The translations under genes and the position numbers were made by a program. A model generated the notes under the pieces. The model was not told where the DNA came from. It did no database searches and saw only the letters and a list, made by a program, of their open reading frames with translations. Shown in pieces: positions 10,233 to 37,121 of a stretch of 47,281 nucleotides of DNA. The stretch comes from Burkholderiales bacterium (lineage in GTDB: Bacteria > Pseudomonadota > Gammaproteobacteria > Burkholderiales > SG8-39), in assembly GCA_035542795.1 (NCBI GenBank), contig DATKKT010000102.1, positions 1 to 47,281 on the forward strand, read 5' to 3'. Numbering within the stretch: the first letter of the stretch is position 1; each line of letters starts with the position of its first letter.

Positions 10233-11918
10233 ATGACTCGCCTGTTCCGCATACTGCTGCTCGCCCTGGCCGTTCCCTGCGCGCACGCCGCCGAGTACAT
10301 GGTGGCGGCGGCCAACCCGCTCGCCGCGCGCGCGGGCATGCAGATCCTGCGCGACGGCGGCAGCGCGCTCGATGCGGCGATCGCCGTGCAGATGGCGCTC
10401 AACGTCGTAGAGCCGCAGTCCTCGGGCATCGGCGGCGGGGCGTTCCTGCTGAACTGGGACGCCGCGGCCAAGGCGGTCTCGGCCTACGACGGCCGCGAGA
10501 CGGCGCCCGCGGCCGCGCGCCCCGACCGCTTTCTGCGCCCCAGCGGCGCGCCGATGGGCATCGGCGAGGCGATCGCCTCGGGACGCTCGGTGGGCGTTCC
10601 CGGCGTGCTGCGCATGCTCAAGCTCGCGCACGAGCGGCACGGGGTCCTGCCCTGGCGCGAATTGTTCCAGCCGGCGATCCGCCTCGCCGAAGACGGCTTC
10701 GAAGTGTCGCCGCGCCTGCACCGGCTCATCGCCGCCGACCCGCTGCTGCGGCGGAACGCCGCGGCGCGCGCGTACTTCTACCTGCCCGACGGCCGCGCGC
10801 TGCCCGCCGGTTACCGGCTGAAGAACCCGGAGCTCGCCGCGGTCCTGCGCCGCGTCGCCGACGAGGGGCCCGATGCCTTCTATCAGGGCGAGATCGCGCA
10901 CGCGATCGTTGCCGCGGCCGCCGCGGCGGACCGTTACGGCCGTGCCGGGGATCTCGCCCCGGAGGACCTCGCGAACTACCGCGCGATCGAGCGCGACGCC
11001 GTCTGCGGCGGCTACCGCGGCCACCGCGTCTGCGGCACGCCGCCGCCCAGCTCCGGCGGCATCGGCGTGCTGGCGATGCTCGGCATCCTCGAGCGCTTCC
11101 CGCTTGCGCGCGTGCCCGCCGGCTCGGCGGAGGCGGTCCACCTGTTCGCCGAGGCCGGGCGCCTCGCATACGCGGATCGCGATCACTACGTCGGCGATCC
11201 GGAGTTCGTGGACGTTCCCACGGCGGGTCTCGTCGATCCGGCCTACCTGCGCGGGCGCTCGATGCTGATCCGTCGCGATCGCAGCATGGGCCGCGCCGCG
11301 CCGGGCACGCCGCCCGGCGCGCGCGCCGCGCTCGGCGCGGACGCGACCGTGGAAGCGGGCGGCACCAGCCACCTGTCGATCGTCGACGCCGACGGCAACG
11401 CGGTGGCGATGACCACGAGCATCGAATCGGCGTTCGGCAGCCGCCTCTTCGTGCGCGGCTTCCTGCTCAACAACGAGCTCACCGATTTCTCGTTCGCGCC
11501 GGGCGAGGCCGGGCGGCCGGCGGCGAACCGCGTCGAAGGCGGCAAGCGGCCGCGCAGCGCCATGGCGCCGACGCTCGTCTTCGCGCGCGGGCGCGACGAT
11601 CGCCTGCTGCTCGCCGCCGGCTCCGCCGGCGGCCCGTCGATCATCAACTACGTCGCCAAGCTGCTCGTCGGCGTGATCGACTGGAAGCTCGGCGTGCTGG
11701 GGGCCATCGCCGCGCCGAACATGGGCAGCCGCAACGGCGATACCGAGCTCGAGCGCGGCAGCGCCGCGGAAGCCCTCGCGCCGGCGCTGCGCGCGCTGGG
11801 GCACCCGGTCGCGGTGCATGCCATGACGAGCGGCTCGCAGGCGATCCTCGTCGCGCCCGGCGGCCTGCAGGGCGGGGCCGACCCCCGCCGCGAGGGCGTC
11901 GCCCTAGGCAACCGCTGA
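10233..11918 (+). CDS. ggt: Gamma-glutamyltransferase, secreted
   Basis: Signal peptide MTRLFRILLLALAVPCAHA, then EPQSSGIGGGAFLL, and the autoprocessing/nucleophile Thr in GGTSHLSIVD. Confidence 0.92.
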   Translation: MTRLFRILLLALAVPCAHAAEYMVAAANPLAARAGMQILRDGGSALDAAIAVQMALNVVEPQSSGIGGGAFLLNWDAAAKAVSAYDGRETAPAAARPDRFLRPSGAPMGIGEAIASGRSVGVPGVLRMLKLAHERHGVLPWRELFQPAIRLAEDGFEVSPRLHRLIAADPLLRRNAAARAYFYLPDGRALPAGYRLKNPELAAVLRRVADEGPDAFYQGEIAHAIVAAAAAADRYGRAGDLAPEDLANYRAIERDAVCGGYRGHRVCGTPPPSSGGIGVLAMLGILERFPLARVPAGSAEAVHLFAEAGRLAYADRDHYVGDPEFVDVPTAGLVDPAYLRGRSMLIRRDRSMGRAAPGTPPGARAALGADATVEAGGTSHLSIVDADGNAVAMTTSIESAFGSRLFVRGFLLNNELTDFSFAPGEAGRPAANRVEGGKRPRSAMAPTLVFARGRDDRLLLAAGSAGGPSIINYVAKLLVGVIDWKLGVLGAIAAPNMGSRNGDTELERGSAAEALAPALRALGHPVAVHAMTSGSQAILVAPGGLQGGADPRREGVALGNR

Positions 11919-25822: not shown

Positions 25823-26886
25823 TCGCTTACGACGTCGTAGAGCACGGCAGGCCGCTGCAGAAGGTCCTGAAGGACACGCCGAAGCCGCAAGGCACCGAGG
25901 TGCTCGTGCGCGTCACGCGCTCGGGCGTGTGCCATTCGGACCTGCACATCTGGGACGGCTACTTCGACCTGGGCGGCGGCAAGCGCTTCTACGTGAAGGA
26001 GCGCGGCTGCGTGCCTCCCTTCACGCTCGGCCACGAGCCGTTCGGGATTGTTGAGGATTTCGGCTCTTCGGCTCCGCGCATCGATAAGAAGCTCAGGCGA
26101 GGCCAGAAGAAGATCGTCTATCCGTGGATCGGCTGCGGCAAGTGCGCGGTCTGCAAGGACGGCTTCGACAACTACTGCGTCTCGGGCACGCGCTTTCTCG
26201 GCGTCACGCGCCCGGGCGCCTATGCGAGCCATGTGCTGATTCCGCACCCGAAGTACCTGGTGGACGCGGCGGGCGTCGACGAGTCCTTCGCCGCCACGCT
26301 CGCCTGCTCCGGGCTCACCACCTACAGCGCCGCAGCGAAGCTGCCGGAGCTCGGGGCGCGCGACTGGGTGGCGGTGATCGGCTGCGGCGGACTGGGCCTG
26401 GTCTGCATCTCGGTGCTGCGCGCCAAGGGCGTGAAGAACATCGTCGGCTGCGACGTCGACGAGGCGAAGCTCGCCGCGGCGCGCAAGCAGGGCGCGAAGC
26501 TCACGCTCGATACGCGATCGCCGGACGCAGTGCAGAAGCTGCAGGGCCTCGCGATGGGCAGCCTCGCCGGCGCGATCGACCTCGTCGGCATGCCCGCGAC
26601 CGCGGCGCTGGGCCTCGGCGCGCTCAGGAAGGGCGGCCGCTACGTGCTCTGCGGCCTCTTCGGCGGCGAGATCACGCATCCGCTGCCGCCGTTCGCGCAG
26701 CGCGCGATCGGCCTCGTAGGCTCCTACGTGGGCAACCTGAAGGAGCTGAAGGAAGTGGTGGCGCTCGCGAAAAAGAAGAAGCTCAAGCCCACGCCCCTGG
26801 CCACGCGGCCGATGGACGAGATCAACGCGATCCTGGAAGACCTCAAGGCCGGCAGGGTGCTCGGGCGCGTGGTGCTCGCGCCCTAG
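25819..26886 (+). CDS. Zinc-dependent alcohol dehydrogenase-family oxidoreductase
   Basis: [14 protein letters not shown], the structural-zinc cysteines [15 protein letters not shown], and the Rossmann motif VIGCGGLG. The ATGA overlap couples it to metY. Confidence 0.88.
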
Positions 26887-27395
26887 CGCGAGCCGGTGCG
26901 GCCGAGCAGCGCTTCGTAGACCGCCAGGTCGCCCGCCGAGAAGCAGCAGAACGTCACTTCCTCGATCGCGGGCAGCCGCGCGAGCGTTTCGCGCACGGTT
27001 GCGACCGCGATGCGGGCCGCCGCTTCGACCGGATAGCCGTAAACGCCCGTGCTGATCGCCGGGAAAGCGATCGTGCGCGCGCCCGCCGCCGCGGCGACCT
27101 CGAGCGAGCGCCGGTAGCAGGAGGCGAGCAGCGCGGGCTCGCCCTCGTTCCCGCCGCGCCAGACCGGCCCTACGGTGTGCACGATGAACTTCGCCTTCAA
27201 GCGGTAGCCTTTCGTCAGCTTCGCCTCCCCCGTAGGACAACCGCCCAGCGTGCGGCACTCGGCGAGGAGCTGCGGGCCCGCGGCGCGGTGGATCGCGCCG
27301 TCCACTCCGCCGCCGCCGAGCAGCGACGAATTGGCGGCGTTGACGATCGCGTCCACCGCGAGCGTCGTGATGTCGGCCCGCAGCGCGCGCAGCAC
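26883..27395 (-). CDS. Macro-domain protein (O-acetyl-ADP-ribose deacetylase, YmdB-like)
   Basis: [34 protein letters not shown] and [17 protein letters not shown] start at 27395. Confidence 0.9.
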
Positions 27396-27396
27396 G

Positions 27397-27804
27397 TCAG
27401 CCCCCCGGCTCCTTGAGCGCCTTGTCCTCCCGGCAGGCTTTCAGCGGCCGCGCCTTGGCGCTGACGATCCGCTTCACTTCGCGCGTCGCCGGATCGGCGA
27501 CGACTTTCAGGCAGGCGCAGCCGTGGCCGTAGCTGCGGTTCGTGGCGACCCATTCGCCCTTCCTGAAGCGCGGCCAGTCGCCCTCGGCCTGATTGCCGCC
27601 CTGCATCCCGATCGTCCATTCGCCGTCGCGATCGGCAAGCGTCGCGTTGCCCGGCGTAGGGTTCTCGAACCAGCCGCAGCGCAGGACGGCCGGCGCATCC
27701 GCTCGCGCGTCGGTCGCGCCGACAGTTGCCAGTGCGACGATCAGCGTCGCCGCGCTGCGGAACGCTCCAGTCGCCAGGGCAAGCGCAGCGACGCTCGATC
27801 TCAT
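27397..27804 (-). CDS. DUF4087-like exported protein
   Basis: A signal peptide followed by [12 protein letters not shown]...GEWTI...YGHGCACL, which from memory is the DUF4087 pattern. ATG 27804 has GGAGG 4 nt upstream and is preferred to 27825. Confidence 0.75.
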
Positions 27805-27832
27805 CGGACCTCCATTTCGGGCCATGCGCGAA

Positions 27833-30271
27833 TCACGCTGGTAACCGTCGCGGCGCGATCCACAGGCGCTCGGTGAGAACGCACTTTACCCCGTCGTTGA
27901 GCAAAAGCGAGCAGACGAGCGCATAGGCGGCGATGAACGCGATCTGCCCGGCCGGAAGTGGCGCGAGCTCGGCCAGCCCGAGGAGGCCGATGGCCACGCC
28001 GACCAGCGCATCCGCCGACAGCGCGGCCGCGAGCACCCAGCCGGGCCGCGACCGCCAGAAGGCGCGCCGCTCGCGGATCGAGACGATCGAGAAGATCGCG
28101 AAAAAGAGCAGCGTCAGGAAGGAGAACGTGTTGAGCCTGCCGCCCGCGAGATCGAACAGCCGCGAGCCGAGGGCGAGCAGCGCCAGGGACTCGAGCAGCA
28201 TCAGCACGCCGAGCACGACCGCGACCTCGACCAGCGGGCCGATGCGCCAGCTCTCGGGCGCCCGCGAGGGGCGGACGCGATCCGCCGAGAGCGCGATCTT
28301 CACGAAGTCGGTCATGAAGACGAGCAGAACCATGCCGAGCGCGGAAATGACGAACTTGCCCGTGACGAGGAACGCGACGACGACGAACCCCGCCTTCAGG
28401 ATCGTGCGGCTCACCTTGTTGATGATCCAGGTGAGGACCCGCTGGTAGATCGAGCGCCCGATCTTCACCAGGTCGACGATGCTCGCGAGCCCTTCTTCCG
28501 TCAGGACGATGCTGGCCGCCCCCTTGGCGACGTCGGTCGCGCCGCTCACGGCGATGCCGACCTCGGCCTGGCTGAGCGCCGGCGCGTCGTTCACGCCGTC
28601 GCCGGTCATGCCGGCCACGTGGCCCGCCGACTGCAGGCGCTTGACGACGAGGAACTTGTCCTCGGGGAAGACCTCGGCGAAGCCGTCGGAGCGCGCCGCG
28701 AGCTCGGTCGCGCGCGAGCCGCCTTCCTTTTCGGCCGCGCGCAGCTCCGGGGCGCGCGCGATATCGCCCAGCCCGAGCTCGCGGGCGATCTCGCGCGCGA
28801 CGGGCAGGCCGTCGCCCGTGAGCATCTTGATTCGGACGCCGAGCGAGCGAAGCTGCTCGATGAGCTGGCGCGAATCCGGCCGCGGCGCGTCGCGCAGGAA
28901 CGCGAGGCCTACGAGCTGCAAGGGGGCGTCGCCGTCGCCTCGCGCGACCGCGAGCACGCGCGCGCCCTTCTTTCCCTCCTCGCCGGCGCGCGCCTCGAGC
29001 TCCGCGACGGTCTGCGGCGGCAGGCCGCACAGCTCGGCGAGCGTGCGCAAGGCGCCCTTGACCGCGCGCAGCTTGCGGCCCTGCACGTCTACGACCGATT
29101 CCGTGCGCCGCGTGTCGGGGGCGAATGGAGCGAAGCTCAGCGTCCTGGCGCCCGGATCGAGCAGGCCGCGCTCGGCCGCCGCGCGCAGGAAGCCGAGGTC
29201 GATCGGATCCTGGTTGGCCGCGTTCGAGGCGAGCGCCGCAGTGCGCAGAACGTCGTCGCCGCTGAATCCGGGCTGCGCGAGCACGGCGTCGAGGCTCAGG
29301 CGGTTCATCGTGAGCGTGCCCGTCTTGTCGGCGCACAGGACGTCCATGTTCGCCGCGTCCTCCACCGCCGCGAGACGGGTGATCAGCACCCCGCGGCGGC
29401 CGAGCTCCATCGAGCCGAGCGCCGTGCTCACGGTGAACATCACCGGCAGCGCCACCGGCACCGCGCTCATGAGCAGCACGAGCGAGAGCGGCAGGATGTC
29501 GAGCAGCGGCAGCCCGCGCACCACGGACAGCACGAGCGCGACGCCCACGAGCGCGCCCACGATGACGAACAGCCACCTCACCATGCGCGTGGTGATCTCC
29601 TCGATGTGCAGCTTCGGGTGCGCGCTCTCGATGAGGTGCGTCGTGCGGCCGTAATAGGTCCGCGCGCCCGTCGCGGAGACGCTCGCGGTGGCCTCTCCGC
29701 GGCGAACGACGCATCCGGCGTAGAGCGTATCGCCGGCGCGCTTTTGCAGCTCGACCGACTCGCCCGTGAGCGCCGATTGGTCGATGCGCAGGTCGCCGTC
29801 GACGACGCGCACGTCCGCCGGCACGAAGTCCCCCGCGCGCACGCGCACCACGTCTCCCGAGACCAGCTCGCGCGCCGGAACCGGCCTCCAGGCCCCGCCG
29901 CGCAAGACCCGTGCGGTGACCTGCAAGCGCTGACGCAGGGCGGCCACCGCCGCGGACGCGCGCCGCTCCTGAAAGAAGCTGAGGAGCGCGTTGACGAAAA
30001 GGAGCGCCAGCGCGATCCAGAAGTCGGCGAGCTTGTGCAGCACGAGCGAGAGACCGGCGATGAGCTCGAGCATCCACGCCGAGAGGCCCCAGAACTTCCC
30101 GAGCAGGCGCAGGAGCGGGTGGCTCGGCGCCTCGGGAACCTCGTTCGGGCCCTCGCGCGCGAGAAGATCATTCGCCTCGGCCTCGGTCAGGCCGCGCTCG
30201 GAAGCGGAGTGAGCCGCCTGCTCAGGCGCGGGCGGCATTTCGCGGCCGTCCAGAGAAAGGTCGGAGTTCAT
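27833..30271 (-). CDS. P-type cation-transporting ATPase, plasma-membrane H+-ATPase-like (type III)
   Basis: TGES, the phosphorylation site CADKTGTLT, and the hinge MTGDGVNDAPAL. Length is 812 aa. The N-terminus GLTEAEANDLLAREGPNEV is typical of type IIIA pumps. Confidence 0.9.
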   Translation of the reverse strand: MNSDLSLDGREMPPAPEQAAHSASERGLTEAEANDLLAREGPNEVPEAPSHPLLRLLGKFWGLSAWMLELIAGLSLVLHKLADFWIALALLFVNALLSFFQERRASAAVAALRQRLQVTARVLRGGAWRPVPARELVSGDVVRVRAGDFVPADVRVVDGDLRIDQSALTGESVELQKRAGDTLYAGCVVRRGEATASVSATGARTYYGRTTHLIESAHPKLHIEEITTRMVRWLFVIVGALVGVALVLSVVRGLPLLDILPLSLVLLMSAVPVALPVMFTVSTALGSMELGRRGVLITRLAAVEDAANMDVLCADKTGTLTMNRLSLDAVLAQPGFSGDDVLRTAALASNAANQDPIDLGFLRAAAERGLLDPGARTLSFAPFAPDTRRTESVVDVQGRKLRAVKGALRTLAELCGLPPQTVAELEARAGEEGKKGARVLAVARGDGDAPLQLVGLAFLRDAPRPDSRQLIEQLRSLGVRIKMLTGDGLPVAREIARELGLGDIARAPELRAAEKEGGSRATELAARSDGFAEVFPEDKFLVVKRLQSAGHVAGMTGDGVNDAPALSQAEVGIAVSGATDVAKGAASIVLTEEGLASIVDLVKIGRSIYQRVLTWIINKVSRTILKAGFVVVAFLVTGKFVISALGMVLLVFMTDFVKIALSADRVRPSRAPESWRIGPLVEVAVVLGVLMLLESLALLALGSRLFDLAGGRLNTFSFLTLLFFAIFSIVSIRERRAFWRSRPGWVLAAALSADALVGVAIGLLGLAELAPLPAGQIAFIAAYALVCSLLLNDGVKCVLTERLWIAPRRLPA

Positions 30272-30423
30272 CTGTTGCGGCTTCGAGCCTTGCGGGCCTG
30301 CACACGCCCGGCTCGTGATTCAGCCCATCGCTTTCAGCCGTCACGCAGTGAGACCGGCGCGTCCGCCGCTTGGTTCCGGCACGGCGGCAGCCTGCCGCCA
30401 AACGTTGCCCAGTGGCCGAGGCC

Positions 30424-30735
30424 TCAGGCCACTTCAATGACCTCTTGCAGGTTGTCCACCGACACCGGAACGGAGGCGTACAGGATCTCCGGCGCTGCGC
30501 CGTACTTCGCAGTGACCATGGCCTTCCACTCCGCCGTGTAGCAGGCTTCGGCGTCGGCCTTGCTCTTCCAGAAATAGATCCCTCCCGCGCGATCGCCGCT
30601 TTCGGTGACGTAATAGTGCTTTCGCACGAGGCCCGGCTTGCGCAGATAGTTCGGAGCGGTCGACTTGAACACGGCCGCCGCTTCCTCGACCGTCCAGCGC
30701 TTCGGCAGCCTGAAGGTCACGATTGATACGATCAT
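30424..30735 (-). CDS. Cassette 7, second ORF: YdhR-like putative monooxygenase (dimeric alpha-beta barrel)
   Basis: The 103-aa protein starts MIVSIVTFRLP and contains GLVRKHYYVTESGDRAGGIYFWKSKADAEACY, which resembles the E. coli YdhR pattern (GGIYLF...A.AY). GGAG lies 7 nt upstream of the ATG. Confidence 0.7.
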   Translation of the reverse strand: MIVSIVTFRLPKRWTVEEAAAVFKSTAPNYLRKPGLVRKHYYVTESGDRAGGIYFWKSKADAEACYTAEWKAMVTAKYGAAPEILYASVPVSVDNLQEVIEVA

Positions 30736-30760
30736 CGTCTTCTCCGTTTGATTGACGTCC

Positions 30761-30922
30761 TCATTCGCCGGCAGGCCATGGTCCGCCGCCCGCCAAGGGC
30801 TTCAGCAGCTTGCGACAGCCTTTGCATTCGTAGAAGAAGACGCACGCGTCAGGCGGCATCTCCTCCTCCGACGCGGTCCCGCACGCAGGACAAGTGATCG
30901 TCGATCGGAGAATCGCTTCCAT
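30761..30922 (-). CDS. Cassette 7, first ORF: 53-aa Cys-rich (CxxC...C...CxxC) peptide
   Basis: My own translation is MEAILRSTITCPACGTASEEEMPPDACVFFYECKGCRKLLKPLAGGGPWPAGE. GAGG lies 5 nt upstream of the ATG. It is not in the ORF track because it is under 60 aa. The first 43 aa resemble, from memory, the N-terminal part of the GDCCVxC-motif protein family, but the C-terminal motif is absent. Confidence 0.5.
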   Translation of the reverse strand: MEAILRSTITCPACGTASEEEMPPDACVFFYECKGCRKLLKPLAGGGPWPAGE

Positions 30923-30937
30923 GCGGCCTCAAATGAG

Positions 30938-30997
30938 GTCTAACGTTCGAGCTAACTGCGCCGCCGAAGGCGGTTGCAGTCGAGCGAGGGGTTAGGC
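30938..30997 (-). repeat. attC site of cassette 6 (60 bp)
   Basis: The plus strand reads GTCTAAC...GTTAGGC, with internal inverted repeats (CGTTCGAGC / CTCGCTCGA-like). Classic 59-base-element size. Confidence 0.8.
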
Positions 30998-31011
30998 GTC
31001 AACTCCAGCTC

Positions 31012-31362
31012 TTACCCTGCCGGAACGGGAAGCACTTCCATCACTTCCACTCCTTCTCCAGGAAAGATCGTAAAGTGAGGGTGATTCAAAAATAGCCGCG
31101 CGGCGGATTCCTGCGACTCCGCCTGGACGATAGTAAAGGCGGCAAGATTGTTGCGAATGTCCGTAATTCCGCCGCTCGCCACCAGCTTGGTACGACTAAG
31201 TGGGCCTCCCATTTCGACTATGGCCGCCACGTTGTCGCTAGCCCACTTTTTCCAAGCCGCCACGCCCTGAGCTTGCCTGTGCTGGCGCTCGCGTTCGGTG
31301 AGCGCTTCCCACCGGGCCATTGCGCCGGGAGTGCCGGTAAAAACTGCAAGGTACCTCTTCAT
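31012..31362 (-). CDS. Cassette 6 ORF: hypothetical 116-aa soluble protein (possibly alpha+beta barrel-like)
   Basis: AGGAGG lies 5 nt upstream of the ATG. The translation is non-repetitive: MKRYLAVFTGTPGAMARWEALTERERQ...FLNHPHFTIFPGEGVEVMEVLPVP. I cannot name a family with confidence. Confidence 0.7.
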   Translation of the reverse strand: MKRYLAVFTGTPGAMARWEALTERERQHRQAQGVAAWKKWASDNVAAIVEMGGPLSRTKLVASGGITDIRNNLAAFTIVQAESQESAARLFLNHPHFTIFPGEGVEVMEVLPVPAG

Positions 31363-31471
31363 GTGGACCTCCTGGTGTCTTCGTGCGGCTCCGGCTACGC
31401 CGCCGGGCGATCAGCCTCGCAGCAAAGTCCGGTGCACGTTGAGACCGGATGATGGGAGCACGAACGTTGCG

Positions 31472-31555
31472 GCCTAACGTTCGAAATCAGCGCCGGTCCG
31501 GCAGCTTGCCTGAGCACGGTGCTGGTGGCCCGTCCGCTGGATTGAGGGGTTAGGC
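31472..31555 (-). repeat. attC site of cassette 5 (84 bp)
   Basis: GCCTAAC (31472-31478) ... GTTAGGC (31549-31555). The arms GCCTAACGTTCGAAATCAGCG and CGCTGGATTGAGGGGTTAGGC are imperfect inverted repeats. Confidence 0.8.
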
Positions 31556-31843
31556 AGCACTCTTAGGTTTACGAAACCTACACAGTGCCCGCCAAGCGAA
31601 AATAAGCGAGATGGTGAGCAATGACCAGAAGACGGTGGTTCCGGCAATCTCAATGACGTCCCCTCGCCAATCAATGTATCCACCGTGGACTCCAAACAGC
31701 AGTACTTGAATTGCAACTCCCGGTAGATCGATATATCTGATCCACTCGAGTTCCGGTGAAATCGCGTATGGCACGACTCTGAGTTTTACCCAGCCGGCAA
31801 CCAAGACCCAAATCAACGCAACGGGCCAATACCTTCGAAGCAT
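31550..31843 (-). CDS. Cassette 5 ORF: hypothetical 97-aa membrane protein (about 3 TM)
   Basis: ATG 31843 is preceded by GGAGG; the track start at 31864 is TTG. Hydrophobic segments are WPVALIWVLVAGWV, GVAIQVLLFGV and TVFWSLLTISLIFAW. The TAA stop lies inside the attC inverse core. Confidence 0.6.
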   Translation of the reverse strand: MLRRYWPVALIWVLVAGWVKLRVVPYAISPELEWIRYIDLPGVAIQVLLFGVHGGYIDWRGDVIEIAGTTVFWSLLTISLIFAWRALCRFRKPKSAA

Positions 31844-31872
31844 ATTCCTCCGCGGCGAGGACAATGAATGCT

Positions 31873-31962
31873 GCCTAACGTGGAGCCGAGCGGCGCGCGC
31901 GGCACAGACACTTAGGAAGCTCCGCCGCCTCGCGCGCGTCCGCCTGCGGCGCCAGGTTAGCC
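31873..31962 (-). repeat. attC site of cassette 4 (90 bp)
   Basis: GCCTAAC (31873-31879) ... GTTAGCC (31956-31962). The arms GCCTAACGTGGAGCCGAGCGG and CCGCCTGCGGCGCCAGGTTAGCC are imperfect inverted repeats. Confidence 0.75.
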
Positions 31963-32403
31963 CCGCGGTTGATTCCAGTGGTCATGTCGGTCACGGCGCT
32001 CTTGACGGTAGTTGGTGACTTCAAGACGCACACCATCGGGGTCGTTAAAGAACGTTGCCCAGTAGTCAGGCGCGTACTCGGGATAGAGGCTTGCCTCAGA
32101 AGCCTCGACGCCTGCGCCTCGGAGCTGATTGGCGACGGCCACGACATCAGCTACTGACTCGACGCGAAAACAGAAGTGGTGCAACCCGGGGGCGTAGGAA
32201 TCGTGCTTGGCGTGCCCGCGCGCGGGACGAAGGACATAGCCGAAGTGGCGGTTGAAGTACTGAACGTGCTGATCGCCGCCGATGGCAAATTTGTTCTTCC
32301 TGAAACCTAGCACTTGCAGCATAACGCGGTCATAGAAGGATTCTGACCGATCAAGATCGGACACCGCGATATGAATGTGGTCAATGCCTGCGACCTCTGT
32401 CAT
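31957..32403 (-). CDS. Cassette 4 ORF: VOC-family protein (glyoxalase/bleomycin-resistance/dioxygenase fold)
   Basis: GIDHIHIAVSDLDRSESFYDRV...GLHHFCFRVES...FNDPDGVRLEV. Length is 148 aa. Confidence 0.85.
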   Translation of the reverse strand: MTEVAGIDHIHIAVSDLDRSESFYDRVMLQVLGFRKNKFAIGGDQHVQYFNRHFGYVLRPARGHAKHDSYAPGLHHFCFRVESVADVVAVANQLRGAGVEASEASLYPEYAPDYWATFFNDPDGVRLEVTNYRQERRDRHDHWNQPRG

Positions 32404-32417
32404 GGCGCGATCGGAGG

Positions 32418-32495
32418 GGCTAACGTTCGCGTTTTGCCGCGCCGCATGCGCAGCGTAGTGAGCTGAAGGCGTCGGGCATCAACGCGCTGTTAGGC
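32418..32495 (-). repeat. attC site of cassette 3 (78 bp)
   Basis: GGCTAAC (32418-32424) ... GTTAGGC (32489-32495). The left arm CTAACGTTCGCGTTTTGCCGCGC closely resembles that of the next attC (32956). Confidence 0.8.
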
Positions 32496-32520
32496 CGCAG
32501 CCGCAGCGAAAGGCCGGACG

Positions 32521-32943
32521 TCAACGATTGCCGGGCAACCATTCGACTCGCTTAAGGTTGTGAGCATGGATCGTGGAAGGGAAGCTTTTCCACTTGATCC
32601 ACTTGCCAGTCTGCGCCATGAAGTACTTGTTGTTGTCCAAATACGCTTCATTGCCCGGGTTCGTCCACTCCTGCCAGATCTGCTCATCCCATTGCACCCG
32701 AACCAGAGTGCCTCTCGACGGTGCCGGCTCTGTACCGATGACTTTGCCCCTTTTTCCCGGATGAACAATGAGGCGTTTTTCGTAACCGGAATCTTTGGGC
32801 TCGATCACGATTGGCGGAAACTGTCCAACGATTGCCACAACTAGTGCGCCCTTCGGGAATGCGTCATTTCCTTCATCCGCGGAAACTGGTTGCGGAACAT
32901 ATAGGAGCAATTGCAGAAATGCCAAGAAGCGAACGAGCGCCAT
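32521..32943 (-). CDS. Cassette 3 ORF: hypothetical 140-aa secreted protein
   Basis: ATG 32943 gives the signal peptide MALVRFLAFLQLLLYVPQPVSA. The longer track ORF would cross the attC. The mature part is Trp/Lys-rich and has no recognisable motif. Confidence 0.65.
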   Translation of the reverse strand: MALVRFLAFLQLLLYVPQPVSADEGNDAFPKGALVVAIVGQFPPIVIEPKDSGYEKRLIVHPGKRGKVIGTEPAPSRGTLVRVQWDEQIWQEWTNPGNEAYLDNNKYFMAQTGKWIKWKSFPSTIHAHNLKRVEWLPGNR

Positions 32944-32955
32944 TGCTAACCTGCG

Positions 32956-33036
32956 GCCTAACGTCCCGGTTTTGCCGCGCTGAAGGAGGCGCGTAGCGCC
33001 GATGCGCAAGCGTCGGTCAACAACCGATTGTTAGAT
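32956..33036 (-). repeat. attC site of cassette 2 (81 bp)
   Basis: GCCTAAC (32956-32962) ... GTTAGAT (33030-33036). Confidence 0.8.
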
Positions 33037-33046
33037 GACTGACGCC

Positions 33047-33328
33047 TCATACAACAGCCACCTCTCGCGGCTTTAGACTGAAATTGCTGCTCCCGCCGTC
33101 TGACCCGAACCAGATCATTCCGTATCGGTCGATCTCCAGTACCTGGAACACCTTTCCTTCGTAGGACCTCAGTCGGGCCTGATCTTCAGGAGGCAGTCCA
33201 TGCGCGCATGAGGAGACCGACACGATCCGGACCTTTGCGCCAACCACGATTGGGCGGCCAGACTCGTCTACGGCCGGCAGTGGAAATCCGGGCGGTAGTT
33301 TCCTCTCAGGCGGCCAATTGGCAGTCAT
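33047..33328 (-). CDS. Cassette 2 ORF: hypothetical 93-aa soluble protein
   Basis: MTANWPPERKLPPGFPLPAVDESGRPIVVGAKVRIVSV...KVFQVLEIDRYGMIWFG. The ATG is embedded in the attC core (GTTAGATG), so there is no room for a Shine-Dalgarno sequence inside the cassette. Confidence 0.6.
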   Translation of the reverse strand: MTANWPPERKLPPGFPLPAVDESGRPIVVGAKVRIVSVSSCAHGLPPEDQARLRSYEGKVFQVLEIDRYGMIWFGSDGGSSNFSLKPREVAVV

Positions 33329-33416
33329 CTAACGTGCCCGGTAACCGGCGCGTGCCCGGCAGCCTACGTGCATGGCGGCGCGTCCGCACGCGTCCGCGTT
33401 GACCGAGGGGTTAGGT
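33327..33416 (-). repeat. attC site of cassette 1 (90 bp)
   Basis: ATCTAAC (33327-33333) ... GTTAGGT (33410-33416). The arms ATCTAACGTGCCCGGTAACCGGCGCG and CGCGTCCGCGTTGACCGAGGGGTTAGGT are imperfect inverted repeats. Confidence 0.75.
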
Positions 33417-33429
33417 GTGACGTGCGCCA

Positions 33430-33720
33430 TTAGAACCACCACCATTGCGGGCCAGCGTAGTACCCGCGCCCAAAGGGCTTGGTTGATAGGAACCCGAGAA
33501 AGAGTAGAAGACCAAGCCCGCCCACTATGGTGAGGGCAACACGCACCGCGTCCGGCAAGAAATCATAGCGGACGCACCAAAGCGCGAGAACGCTTACAGC
33601 TCCGACTGTGATCCAGAAGGACCACGCTCGCCTTGAACTGGTGCGTCCCTTCCCATCGAGGTAAGCATCGACCATGGCTTTGCCTCGAGGGTCCGGATTG
33701 TCAGGTGGCAGAAGCAGCAT
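33430..33720 (-). CDS. Cassette 1 ORF: hypothetical 96-aa membrane protein (2 TM)
   Basis: ATG 33720 lies 6 nt after the attI crossover GTTAGGT, and AGGTG serves as the SD. TM segments are FWITVGAVSVLALWCV and VALTIVGGLGLLLFLGFL. The 169-aa track ORF would start inside intI and cross attI. Confidence 0.6.
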   Translation of the reverse strand: MLLLPPDNPDPRGKAMVDAYLDGKGRTSSRRAWSFWITVGAVSVLALWCVRYDFLPDAVRVALTIVGGLGLLLFLGFLSTKPFGRGYYAGPQWWWF

Positions 33721-33726
33721 CGTCAC

Positions 33727-33775
33727 ACCTAACGTGTATTGGTTGACATTTTTAGTTGACGAATTGGCAACTAAA
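33727..33775 (-). other. attI recombination region (crossover GTTAGGT at 33727-33733 on the minus strand)
   Basis: A GTTRRRY core sits immediately upstream of the first cassette ORF. The adjacent sequence has GTTGAC direct repeats (33742-33747, 33755-33760) and a 21-bp imperfect inverted repeat TAGTTGACGAATTGGCAACTA (33753-33773). These are plausible IntI-binding sites. Confidence 0.6.
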
Positions 33776-33859
33776 TCGGGGCCATTCTGCGCCTGACGGC
33801 CGTCATCCTTCAACCGCCTCCGCACGTTAGCGAATTCTGAGGCGACGAAAAGGCATGAC

Positions 33860-34882
33860 ATGGCATCTGATTCCGAGATAGGCGAGCCCGCGCGCCCTCC
33901 CAGGCTGCTCGATGTCGTGCGCGATTGCATCCGCCGCAAGCACTACAGCCTGCGCACGGAGCAGACGTATGTCCACTGGATCAGGCGCTTCATCTATTTT
34001 CACGGCAAGCGCCACCCGCTCGAGCTGGGCGAGGCCGAGGTCACGGCGTTCGTGAACCATCTCGCGCGCGAGCGCGACGTCGCGGCGGCCACGCAGAACC
34101 AGGCGCTGTCGGCCCTGCTCTTTCTCTACCGGGAGGCGCTGAAGCGCCCGCTCGCCTGGCTGGAGGGCCTCGAGCGCGCCAAGCGCCCCGCCCGCGTGCC
34201 GACGGTGCTGACGCGCCGCGAAGCGCAGCACCTGCTCGCGAACCTGCACGGCACGCGCTGGCTGATGGCAAGCCTGCTGTACGGCGCGGGATTGCGATTG
34301 CGCGAATGCCTCAAGCTGCGCGTGAAGGACGTCGATTTCGAGTACCGGCAGATCGTCGTGCGCGACGGCAAGGGCGCGAAGGACCGGGTCACCATGCTGC
34401 CGGCATCCGCAGCGGAAGCGTTGAAGGCGCAGATCGCGCACGCCCGCAGGGTGCACGAGCGCGACCTCGCCGCCGGCTGCGGGGATGTCGAGCTGCCGGA
34501 CGCGCTCGCGCGCAAGTACCCGAAGGCGCCGTACGAATGGGGATGGAAATTCGTCTTTCCGTCGCACAAGCTGTCGACGGACCCGCGCACCGGCGCCGTC
34601 CGGCGCCATCACCTGTACGAGAACTACCTCATCCGCGCCGTGAAGGACGCAGCCCGGCGCGCCGGCATCGCCAAGCACGTGAGCTGCCACACGCTGCGAC
34701 ACTCCTTCGCTACGCACCTGCTCGAGGCAGGCCACGACATCCGCACGGTGCAGGAACTGCTCGGCCATTCCGACGTGAGCACCACGATGGTGTATACGCA
34801 CGTGCTCAACAAGGGCGGGCGCGGCGTGATGAGCCCGCTCGATCGAATCGAACGGCCGGCAACCGACCCAGCAGCGCGCTAA
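33860..34882 (+). CDS. intI: Integron integrase
   Basis: The 340-aa protein is collinear with IntI1: [26 protein letters not shown], box [23 protein letters not shown], the integron-specific insertion [40 protein letters not shown], and box [41 protein letters not shown]. All R-H-R-Y positions are present and there are no internal stops. Confidence 0.95.
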
Positions 34883-34932
34883 GAGGGCAGGCGCTTGATG
34901 AATCATTCAGATAATCAATCGCTTGCAATTTT

Positions 34933-34953
34933 GAGGTCGCAAAATGCGACTTC
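34933..34953. repeat. Inverted repeat GAGGTCGCA-AAA-TGCGACTTC spanning the ORF6N start codon
   Basis: The core GTCGCA/TGCGAC is perfect (34936-34941 / 34945-34950). The outer arms have one mismatch. It shares the GGTCGCAAA..TGCGAC core with the palindrome at 35154-35180. Confidence 0.8.
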
Positions 34954-35531
34954 AGGTTACGGACGTGACCACGCAGATGCGTGACGAAATTCAATCCAGG
35001 ATCGTGCAAGTTCGCGGAACGCGTGTGCTCGTCGATTCGGACCTTGCAGTGCTCTATGGGGTCACCACGAAGCGTCTGAACGAGCAGGTCAAGCGCAACC
35101 GGGAGCGGTTTCCGGCGGAGTTCGTGTTTCGGCTGACCCCGGCCGAGAAGGCGGAGGTGGTCGCAAATTGCGACCACCTCGCGAAGCTCCGGTTCGCACC
35201 CACCCTACCTCACGTCTTCACCGAGCACGGTGTCCTGATGGCTTCGGCAGTTCTCAATACGCCGCAGGCGGTGGAGGTGAGCCTGTTCGTGATCCGAGCT
35301 TTCCTACGGCTTCGCGAGACAGTCTCGGCAAACCGGGAGATTTCCAGGGCCCTCCATCAGCTGGAGCGCAGGGTCGGCATCCACGACCGCGCGATCGCAC
35401 AGATATTCGAGGCGCTCCGCAGGCTCACAGCGCCGCCCGAGGCGCCGAAGCGGCGGCGCATCGGCTTCCTGCAGCGAAATTGCTCGCGGTCAAGCGGGAA
35501 GCACCCCGGTGCCCGCTTAGAATTACGCCCC
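34944..35531 (+). CDS. ORF6N/KilA-N-like DNA-binding domain protein, with no stop codon of its own (frame continues into the GGT gene)
   Basis: IVQVRGTRVLVDSDLAVLYGVTTKRLNEQVKRNRERFPAEFVFRLT and LPHVFTEHGVLMASAVLNTPQAVEVSLFVIRAF match the ORF6N-domain pattern. The reading frame 34944-37121 is uninterrupted. Confidence 0.7.
35154..35180. repeat. 27-bp perfect palindrome (13-nt arms) inside the ORF6N coding sequence
   Basis: GAGGTGGTCGCAA-A-TTGCGACCACCTC, checked base by base; pairing breaks at 35153/35181. Confidence 0.95.
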
Positions 35532-37121
35532 ATGAGCGTTCCCTTCGACTGGAAATTCCCCTATACGTGGCCGCGCAAGCCGCTGTTCGCGAAGAACGTG
35601 GTTTGCACCTCGCAGCCGCTCGCCGCACAGGCCGGGTTGCAGATGCTCGCCGCGGGCGGCAGCGCGGTGGACGCGATCCTCGCCACCGCGATCACCCTCA
35701 CGCTCGTAGAGCCCGTCTCCAACGGCATTGGCTCGGACGCCTACGCGATCGTCTGGGACGGCAAGCAGCTGCACGGCCTCAACGCCTCGGGGCGCTCGCC
35801 CGCCGCATGGTCGCCCGAGTATTTCGCGAAGCACGGCAAGGTTCCGGTGCGCGGCTGGGATTCGGTCAGCGTGCCGGGGTGCGTCGCGGCCTGGGCGGAC
35901 CTGCATGCGAAGTTCGGCAAGCTGCCCTTCGAGAAGCTCTTCGAGGCGGCGATCCGCTACGGGCGCGAAGGCTTCATGGTCTCGCCCACGATCGCGAAGC
36001 AATGGGCGGCGCAGGTGCCGGAGCTGAAGGTTCAGCCGGGCTTCGCGGAAGCATTCATGCCGAACGGGCGGCCGCCCGCGACGGGGGAAGTATTCAAGTG
36101 GGCCGACCACGCGGCGACGCTGGAAAGAATCGCCGCGACGCGCGGCAAGGATTTCTACAGCGGCGGCATCGCCGAGAAGATCGAGGCGCACGCGAAGCAG
36201 CACGGCGCCGCGATGAAAGTGTCCGACCTCGCGGCGCACAAGTCCGAGTGGGTAGGGACGCTGCAGCACGACTACCGCGGCTACACGATCCACGAGATCC
36301 CGCCCAACGGCCAGGGCATCGTCGCGCTGATCGCGCTCGGCATCCTCGAGCACTTCGACATGAAGTCGATCCCGGTGGACTCGACCGAGAGCTTCCACCT
36401 GCAGATCGAGGCGGTGAAGCTCGCCTTCGCCGATGCGCTCGCCTACGTGGCCGACATCGACTACATGCCGTTTCGTCCCGAGCGGCTTTTGGATAGAAAT
36501 TATTTGAAGGAAAGATCCGGATTGATCGACCGCAAGAAGGCACAACCCTTCTCCGCCGGCAAGCCGCCGCAGGGCGGCACGGTGTACCTCACGGCGGCCG
36601 ACGCCTCCGGAATGATGGTGTCGATGATCCAGTCGAACTACATGGGCTTCGGCTCCGGTGTCGTGGTGCCCGGCACGGGCGTGTCGCTGCAGAACCGAGC
36701 GGCGACCTTCGTCATGGCCGAGGGCCACCCGAATCGCGTAGCGCCGAGGAAGAAGCCCTACCAGACGATCATCCCGGGCTTCGTGACGAAGGACGGCCGG
36801 CCGATCATGAGTTTTGGTGTGATGGGCGGCACCATGCAGCCGCAGGGCCACGCGCAGGTACTGGTGAGAATTGCGGATTACGGCCAGAACCCGCAGGCAG
36901 CCTGCGACGGGCCGCGCTTCCGCTGGGTGCAGGGCATGGACGTCTCGGTCGAGGACAACTTCCCGCCGAAGGTGGTCGAGGGGCTGCGCGCGCTCGGCCA
37001 CCGCATCGTCACCGTGGACGACTACAACCAGTTCGGCAGCGGCCAGCTGATCTGGAAGATGGACGGCGGCTGGCTGGCGGCGAGCGACCCGCGCCGCGAC
37101 GGCCAGGCGGCGGGGTTCTGA
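35532..37121 (+). CDS. Gamma-glutamyltransferase-family protein without signal peptide
   Basis: From ATG 35532: MSVPFDWKFPYTWPRKPLFAKNVVCTSQPLAAQAGLQMLAAGGSAVDA, EPVSNGIGSDAYAIVW, and the nucleophile Thr in GGTVYLTAAD. At 529 aa it is in the size class of cytoplasmic GGT-like amidohydrolases. Confidence 0.88.
   Translation: MSVPFDWKFPYTWPRKPLFAKNVVCTSQPLAAQAGLQMLAAGGSAVDAILATAITLTLVEPVSNGIGSDAYAIVWDGKQLHGLNASGRSPAAWSPEYFAKHGKVPVRGWDSVSVPGCVAAWADLHAKFGKLPFEKLFEAAIRYGREGFMVSPTIAKQWAAQVPELKVQPGFAEAFMPNGRPPATGEVFKWADHAATLERIAATRGKDFYSGGIAEKIEAHAKQHGAAMKVSDLAAHKSEWVGTLQHDYRGYTIHEIPPNGQGIVALIALGILEHFDMKSIPVDSTESFHLQIEAVKLAFADALAYVADIDYMPFRPERLLDRNYLKERSGLIDRKKAQPFSAGKPPQGGTVYLTAADASGMMVSMIQSNYMGFGSGVVVPGTGVSLQNRAATFVMAEGHPNRVAPRKKPYQTIIPGFVTKDGRPIMSFGVMGGTMQPQGHAQVLVRIADYGQNPQAACDGPRFRWVQGMDVSVEDNFPPKVVEGLRALGHRIVTVDDYNQFGSGQLIWKMDGGWLAASDPRRDGQAAGF

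Follow-up and report, generated by a model that had tools for sequence, protein, structure and literature searches.

Does the DNA between positions 30,424 and 34,882 of contig DATKKT010000102.1 hold a complete integron, and is that integron a settled part of the chromosome? The contig belongs to an uncultured Burkholderiales bacterium (assembly GCA_035542795.1), and its whole length of 47,281 nucleotides, here called the window, was analysed. Loci and contigs used for comparison carry L numbers. An earlier note on this DNA had read the stretch as a complete sedentary chromosomal integron with an intact integrase and seven cassettes. In integrons, attI recombines with the folded bottom strand of attC sites through the action of the integrase IntI, so that cassettes enter beside the intI gene and are expressed from the cassette promoter Pc (PMC4889954, PMC8352920). 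A complete integron is defined by intI together with one or more attC sites (Cury et al. 2016), and the window element contains both. Its intact IntI, attI, attC array and promoterless cassettes with single open reading frames (ORFs), set in a chromosome with no transposition genes detected, lead us to conclude with high confidence that it is a complete chromosomal integron of the soil and freshwater proteobacterial type, lying between housekeeping genes. Comparison with near-identical contigs suggests that it is probably still active. Integrons of this kind are well known, and this one is ordinary.

The integrase and its recombination sites

The intI gene (33860–34882, plus strand) encodes a protein of 340 aa in an ORF uninterrupted by internal stops. 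Against the NCBIfam integron integrase model TIGR02249 (cutoff 265) this protein reaches 476.5 bits, and it aligns over its full length with VchIntIA of Vibrio cholerae (PDB 2A3V; 313 residues, E-value 1e-97), gapless through the integron-specific domain. All catalytic residues are in place (R146, K171, H277, R280, H303 and Y312 in IntI1 numbering; RKHRHY), and the IntI-specific segment corresponds to residues 212–251. The earlier description of an integrase with the tyrosine-recombinase set and an insertion found only in integron integrases is confirmed, its coordinates being exact. The gene is host-adapted in codon usage, with a host-like G+C content at third codon positions (GC3) of 0.88.

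The XerC and XerD models stay far under their own cutoffs for this protein, and the IntI1-type equivalog NF011946 reaches 386 bits, under its cutoff of 435. A search of 72,556 plasmids gave 61% identity for the best plasmid-borne IntI and 57% for IntI3. The best matches among GTDB species representatives are 79–82% identical and all come from metagenome-assembled genomes (MAGs) of Burkholderiales/Betaproteobacteria, with none above 82%. These distances from plasmid, IntI3 and representative-genome proteins mark the window IntI as a distinct, non-clinical integrase.

The gene runs divergently from a GTTAGGT core and from the cassette array. This core (33733–33727), which the earlier note had correctly identified as a crossover between intI and the first cassette, is the last element of an attI site on the minus strand (33727–33760), where two direct GTCAAC repeats (33760–33755 and 33747–33742) precede it in the layout GTCAAC-N7-GTCAAC-N8-GTTAGGT. 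Crossover takes place after G33733, as judged from the junctions described below. The same layout stands upstream of the closest IntI genes (L001, L002, L007 and L009).

Beyond attI, the array contains six imperfect palindromes bounded by RYYYAAC and GTTRRRY, all of them where the earlier note had placed them: attC1 (33416–33327), attC2 (33036–32956), attC3 (32495–32418), attC4 (31962–31873), attC5 (31555–31472) and attC6 (30997–30938). Departures from the strict consensus are slight (attC3 has GTTAGCC at its end and attC4 GGCTAAC at its start), and on neither strand of the 47 kb is there another motif pair of this kind with a spacing of 40–140 nt. The nearest R'' core (33416) lies 444 bp from the start of intI, and the sites, all oriented on the plus strand, are spaced 371–545 bp apart. 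They are 60–90 nt long and 52–72% identical in pairwise comparison, with a mean of 62%; the 60-nt attC6 presumably has the layout of the classical 59-base elements. In all six, the plus (bottom) strand folds as an imperfect hairpin in which R' pairs with R'' and bulges fall mainly on the 3′ arm.

Since MAFFT misaligned the six full-length sites, their variable loops were trimmed before alignment. On the trimmed alignment RNAalifold found 18 pairs, 10 of them with compensatory changes, and a covariance model, R1, was built from it. R1 matches only the six attC sites in the window. Across 40 foreign intI loci it yields 91 hits in 23 loci. These loci comprise 157 kb upstream of intI, which holds all 91 hits, and 304 kb downstream, which holds none; 90 of the 91 lie on the strand of intI, as in the window. 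A second model, R2, rebuilt from full-length hits and trained only on these 91 sites adjoining intI in other genomes, scores attC1 to attC6 at 64.2, 53.6, 60.3, 62.4, 58.7 and 54.5 bits, respectively, within ±2 nt of the motif boundaries. Other positions in the window reach 15.9 bits at most, and the six sites read on their opposite strand reach 8–23 bits. The earlier note had suggested scoring the repeats with an attC covariance model as a check, and all six are scored by this one. In the alignment of the 91 sites, which was fitted to the model so that its pairing figures lean towards structure, 95.8% of cells pair, against 73% after shuffling and 30–42% with slid partners, and 293 cells are compensatory against 73.

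The cassettes and their exchange

The crossover G positions (33733, 33333, 32962, 32424, 31879, 31478 and 30944) delimit six complete cassettes, all read from the minus strand, and the distances between them reproduce exactly the sizes first reported. Cassette 1 (33333–33732, 400 bp, closed by attC1) contains an ORF for a predicted membrane protein of 96 aa (33720–33430), cassette 2 (32962–33332, 371 bp, attC2) one of 93 aa (33328–33047) and cassette 3 (32424–32961, 538 bp, attC3) one of 140 aa (32943–32521). Cassette 4 (31879–32423, 545 bp, attC4) contains an ORF of 148 aa (32403–31957) for a protein with the vicinal oxygen chelate (VOC)/glyoxalase fold, cassette 5 (31478–31878, 401 bp, attC5) one for a second predicted membrane protein (31864–31550, 104 aa) and cassette 6 (30944–31477, 534 bp, attC6) one of 116 aa (31362–31012). 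Each complete cassette has a single minus-strand ORF, and three of these ORFs start or stop inside an attC core, as had been claimed: the ATG of cassette 2 overlaps R' of attC1, and the stops of cassettes 4 and 5 lie within their own R''.

The cassettes differ from their surroundings in composition and show foreign codon usage. The GC3 of their ORFs is 0.55–0.65, compared with 0.88–0.98 in host genes. Their G+C content is 54–62% (58.7% for the array), compared with 69–71% in the flanks. The earlier note was right that the cassettes are poorer in G+C, and the 47–48% and 82% that it quoted for single 60-nt lines are real local extremes.

At curated thresholds, five of the six proteins match no Pfam or NCBIfam family, in agreement with the note. 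Pfam, NCBIfam, PADLOC and PHROGs all lack a family for the proteins of cassettes 1, 2, 3 and 5, and the latter two databases give nothing credible on cassette functions. The cassette 3 protein falls in a 90% identity cluster with a single member and has a hydrophobic N terminus that, judged by eye, may be a signal peptide. The cassette 4 protein matches Pfam Glyoxalase (E-value 5e-12); models of the FosA type reach only 17–27 bits against cutoffs of 180–310, and no resistance cassette is recognised in the array. For the cassette 6 protein, which lacks a Pfam model, an AlphaFold2 model (pLDDT 82) with Foldseek matches to 1MWQ, 1S7I and 4LBP (E-values 4e-5 to 2e-4) predicts a YCII-like alpha+beta barrel. 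Its family counts 876 or more homologous clusters (90% identity), none of them named beyond 'hypothetical', and the gene looks like a widespread environmental cassette gene. A TIR match (E-value 4.5e-4) was dismissed because it falls in a predicted membrane stretch, and no toxin–antitoxin cassettes were seen in the array.

Evidence for recent cassette movement comes from metagenomic contigs, from this genome and three metagenome samples, whose backbones are 98.9–99.6% identical to the window. The source samples are JGI 3300038410, 3300038431 and 3300038455 and ENA ERZ27256600. Three different first cassettes occupy attI in these contigs: the 96-aa cassette in the window, a DUF2262 cassette in L163 and L082, and a third in L081. 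L163, L082 and L081 all diverge from the window directly after the GTTAG of attI. A further contig, L164, matches the window in the distal array and in the left flank up to the alcohol dehydrogenase gene. Between cassettes 2 and 3 it carries two more, giving eight attC sites, and all four junctions fall at G|TTAGGC. Cassette content therefore varies between backbones that are about 99% identical while intI stays fixed, which the earlier note had proposed as a check. In these assembled sequences the cassettes behave as discrete mobile units, and the natural variants differ only by whole cassettes at the canonical crossover. The ORFs of the extra cassettes in L164 (682–1782) are 192 and 110 aa long, and the second cassette has an attC similar both to attC2 and to that of the L163 DUF2262 cassette.

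Individual cassettes also recur in other arrays. Cassette 4 is found whole (31875–32427) at 92% nucleotide identity in the unrelated arrays L175–L178, with homology ending at the cassette boundaries. Cassette 6 recurs in the attC arrays L172–L174 (88% identical), and cassette 2 behind an attC in the unrelated contig L179 (98% identical). Every one of these copies is flanked by at least one attC scored by R2.

By the established mechanism, the window IntI, a tyrosine recombinase, would recognise the folded bottom strand of the attC hairpins, which here is the plus strand of the window. Recombination of attC with attI at G|TT would insert circular promoterless cassettes beside intI, and recombination between two attC sites would excise them. 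A promoter in the intI–attI region would drive the inserted genes, which would be transcribed on the minus strand in the direction leading away from intI.

At its distal end the array is damaged. Of the seven cassettes originally counted, six are complete; the seventh (30787–30943, minus strand) is a truncated remnant without an attC and retains the 5′ two-thirds of a GDCCVxC-domain gene. We regard it as truncated because the mechanically called ORF (30922–30761, 53 aa; 61 bits against NF041374) covers only profile positions 1–39 of 58. The N-terminal zinc-ribbon part of this (seleno)protein gene remains, and the GDCCVxC motif itself is missing from the ORF. The break point would lie near 30787, with the array ending near 30753–30790. 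The truncated gene marks a deletion at this end. A hairpin at 30340–30425 was considered as a seventh attC and rejected (z = -0.1), since neither R1 nor R2 hits it; 30272–30936 is likewise empty.

Several of our results weigh against a complete and active integron. The hairpin energies of the six sites are only modestly better than those of shuffled sequences (z -1.3 to -2.1), because the DNA is G+C-rich. The training sites of R2 were found with R1, so that R2 descends indirectly from the window's own sites and is not fully independent of them, and R2 is not the curated model of IntegronFinder. Recombination activity is inferred from metagenome contigs, and the variant contigs may come from several strains. 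A consensus scan of the intI–attI region (33700–34000) found no sigma-70-like Pc, and the same kind of scan found no promoter for intI (PintI). The best Pc candidate by eye, TTGAAG-18 nt-CAGAAT (33813–33784), is weak, agreeing at 8 of 12 consensus positions. There is no LexA box near intI. No terminal attC closes the array, with no hit of R1 or R2 below 30936 and a truncated distal end.

The modest folding energies, together with the lack of a match in an Rfam scan at gathering thresholds (it is uncertain whether Rfam holds an attC family), would suit a locus that is not an integron at all, in which an Xer-like recombinase stands beside palindromes between small genes that resemble repetitive extragenic palindromic (REP) elements. 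However, the integrase scores far over the cutoff of the integron-integrase model and far under those of XerC and XerD; the sites fit a model made from foreign sites, all 91 of which lie upstream of an intI, with strand asymmetry and covariation; and natural cassette indels fall exactly at G|TT. We consider the Xer/REP reading refuted and give it next to no credence.

The missing promoter and LexA signals and the truncated array end would also fit a decaying relic, whose integrase is intact in sequence but inactive or unexpressed and whose cassette polymorphism is past or was produced by an integrase acting in trans. Loss of the stop codon in the adjoining ORF6N gene and decay of intI in sister lineages, both described below, point the same way. 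Against this stand a full-length ORF with all catalytic residues and the IntI-specific domain, and a contig with no second intI. Moreover, three first cassettes and a two-cassette indel among backbones differing by at most about 1% argue for very recent recombination at this attI. We therefore think a relic unlikely and keep to an integron that is probably still active, a clean natural case in which an environmental integron is seen exchanging its cassettes, with backbones about 99% identical differing by whole cassettes at G|TT.

The chromosomal locus and the origin of the integron platform

The Pfam-annotated genes of the contig are all metabolic, transport or regulatory. Transposase, tni, conjugation, plasmid and phage genes are absent from 44 Pfam-scanned ORFs, with stretches such as 15.1–16.2 kb lying outside the scan; the search for mobility genes also covered genes of L163, which is 99% identical (SDR, hydrolase, 4HBT, MFS and cNMP-binding). 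No tRNA genes were found on the 47-kb contig. The statement that the element is chromosomal and not a mobile integron of classes 1–3 is borne out: its flanks are metabolic genes, its IntI falls outside these classes (NF011946 under cutoff, IntI3 at 57%), and no insertion sequence, transposon, tni or plasmid gene is seen among the annotated genes.

The closest counterparts are chromosomal integrons of soil and freshwater Beta- and Gammaproteobacteria from the IntegronFinder catalogue (PMC4889954), of which Nitrosomonas, Thiobacillus, Propionivibrio and Dechloromonas loci were retrieved. They have the same arrangement of intI divergent from unidirectional, short, single-ORF cassettes, share the attC consensus common to the 91 sites in 23 loci, and carry IntI proteins 59–82% identical to that of the window; most of their cassettes are likewise of unknown function. 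The window element differs in that its IntI is at most 82% identical to any GTDB representative, its cassette content is unique to its population, it lacks a LexA box and an ORF6N gene lies downstream of intI. With class 1 and class 3 integrons it shares the architecture, the soil/freshwater IntI clade and the R146…Y312 numbering; in contrast to them, it has no close plasmid relative (61% at best), no Tn402/tni module, no 3′-conserved segment, no plasmid and no recognised resistance cassette. The V. cholerae superintegron is alike in its alignable IntI with the specific domain, its chromosomal position and its cassettes of mostly unknown function, but has well over a hundred attC sites in near-identical Vibrio cholerae repeats (VCRs), compared with six heterogeneous sites here.

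Whether the element is sedentary is a harder question. Sedentary integrons have been recognised by more than 19 attC sites or by presence in 100% of the genomes of a species (Cury 2016, PMC4889954), and about 10% of beta-proteobacterial genomes are reported to carry small chromosomal integrons (PMC4889954). With six attC sites in the window and eight in the variant L164, both arrays stay under that number, and the window sites lack the high mutual similarity expected of a sedentary array. L081, L082 and L163, whose backbones are about 99% identical across intI, all carry the gene, and many genus-level relatives have an empty site. In those MAGs, the zinc-dependent alcohol dehydrogenase (Zn-ADH) gene, which ends at 26878 in the window, lies 40–340 bp from the gamma-glutamyltranspeptidase (GGT) gene, which starts at 35549. 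Relative to them, 26879–35540 is an island of 8.7 kb.

Several related species nevertheless hold an integron at the same place. The order intI(-ORF6N)-GGT-glutathione S-transferase (GST) recurs in L015, L087, L091 and L093, with ORF6N missing in L091, and the same-locus integrons include L015 (at least 13 attC sites), L093 and L091. In L087 (1794–2567) intI is truncated to residues 4–261, and L089 (3–299) has only fragments of it; these two sister species illustrate lineage-specific decay of the integrase. L088 and L091 keep a remnant of the 3′ end of ORF6N, which indicates that at least some empty sites arose by deletion. A fixed position across related species with lineage-specific intI loss or decay is also described for Xanthomonas chromosomal integrons in a preprint (bioRxiv 10.1101/2025.06.18.660453). 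The window locus and its relatives L087 and L089 are similar in these respects, and differ in the locus itself (Zn-ADH/GGT), in attC type and in an IntI type that is not uniform across species.

This non-uniformity is considerable. The window IntI is 59–67% identical to those at the same locus (L015, L087, L091 and L093), and the flanking GGT is 75–88% identical. Compared with L087, GGT is 88% and IntI only 59% identical, while L087 and L091 share 89% in IntI and 83% in GGT, and L015 and L093 share 85% and 77%. The closest IntI genes (79–82%, L001 and L002) lie outside this GGT context. The window attI, with GTCAAC repeats and no LexA box, is likewise of the type found at distant loci, whereas same-site relatives have LexA boxes (a perfect CTGT-N8-ACAG in L087 and L091, one mismatch in L093). 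Its ORF6N is 49–54% identical to the same-site homologues and up to 62% identical to ORF6N genes of other phyla, and nucleotide identity to L087 is about 57% in ORF6N and rises to 88% in GGT. A sharp recombination breakpoint in ORF6N was rejected, as sliding-window identity forms a gradient near 35.3–35.5 kb.

Taken together, these comparisons suggest that the platform of IntI, attI and ORF6N was probably, though not provably, replaced or independently acquired at the locus. More specifically, and tentatively, intI, attI and most of ORF6N may have been exchanged in situ at the ADH|GGT locus, coming from a lineage other than that of the sister species. If so, nominally sedentary integrons could swap their recombinase/attI module by homologous recombination, with a change of regulation. 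The same data, with the many empty sites and the small number of dissimilar attC (six, mean identity 62%), lend themselves to a broader alternative, in which the integron is real but not sedentary: the intI–attI(-ORF6N) platform or the whole 26879–35540 island would have been acquired or replaced at a variable hotspot through horizontal transfer and homologous recombination, and the element, though chromosomal, would resemble mobile or 'other' class integrons in its behaviour. The failure to find transposase, tni, conjugation or phage genes on the contig, the host-adapted GC3 of intI, the 61% ceiling on identity to plasmid-borne IntI, the integrons of related species at the locus, the ORF6N remnants and the gradual change of identity all speak against it. 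We hold this alternative to be quite possible without favouring it. Of the earlier label 'sedentary', we keep that the element is chromosomal and not transposon-borne; the six heterogeneous attC sites, the empty sites in relatives, and an IntI and attI type unlike those of same-locus integrons do not fit the term.

The complete chromosomal integron described here leaves the understanding of integrons unchanged. It contributes an IntI lineage whose identity to representative genomes is 82% at most, together with several cassette proteins of unknown function, including the widespread YCII-like family, to the environmental pool feeding mobile integrons.

The ORF6N gene and other neighbours

Besides the array, intI and ORF6N, the island contains genes for a Macro protein (26883–27395), a DUF4087 protein (27397–27825) and a P-type ATPase (27833–30271), followed by a YdhR-like gene. 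The first three have host-like GC3 and no attC. The YdhR/ABM-like gene (30424–30735, minus strand; 103 aa; Pfam ydhR 29 bits; GC3 0.82) abuts the end of the array, and its assignment as a cassette is unsupported, as homologues 93% identical in L169–L171 have no attC flanks.

On the other side of the array, intI is followed by an ORF6N/KilA-N-type, anti-repressor-like gene (34944–35531, plus strand; Pfam ORF6N, E-value 2e-25), a neighbour and not a canonical part of an integron. Its protein matches the PADLOC candidate defence family PDC-S05 (E-value 4e-48) and an anti-repressor in PHROGs. The stop codon of this gene has been lost: relatives end in RIGFL followed by a stop, and the window and L163 read RIGFLQ, with CAG in its place (junction 35466–35531). 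The frame stays open for 20 codons up to the GGT start, giving a predicted ORF6N-GGT ORF of 725 aa (34944–37121). A conserved fusion, hinted at by long tblastn alignments (L084 and L093), was rejected because every relative has a stop after RIGFL.

More speculatively, the ORF6N/KilA-N-type neighbour may be functionally tied to the integron. We rejected a general association with intI, since of 80 ORF6N loci spread over many phyla an integron-type IntI adjoins only one, L238, and attC hits occur at only two, L188 and L240. In L238 (3463–5148), from an Elusimicrobiota MAG, the IntI beside the ORF6N homologue shows 57% identity. Several other homologues come after unrelated tyrosine recombinases.

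Two features of the wider neighbourhood can be added. The contig has a second GGT paralogue (561 aa, 10233–11918), at a distance of 23 kb from the GGT beside the integron. In L003 (14680–20654), a related MAG with an IntI 75% identical, homologues of window positions 38.8–44.3 kb stand inverted downstream of intI, with no GGT or GST, so that this neighbourhood is rearranged around the integron. Finally, in a Methylomirabilota MAG (L240, 3817–4596), an ORF6N homologue lies between two attC hits and is itself apparently a cassette.

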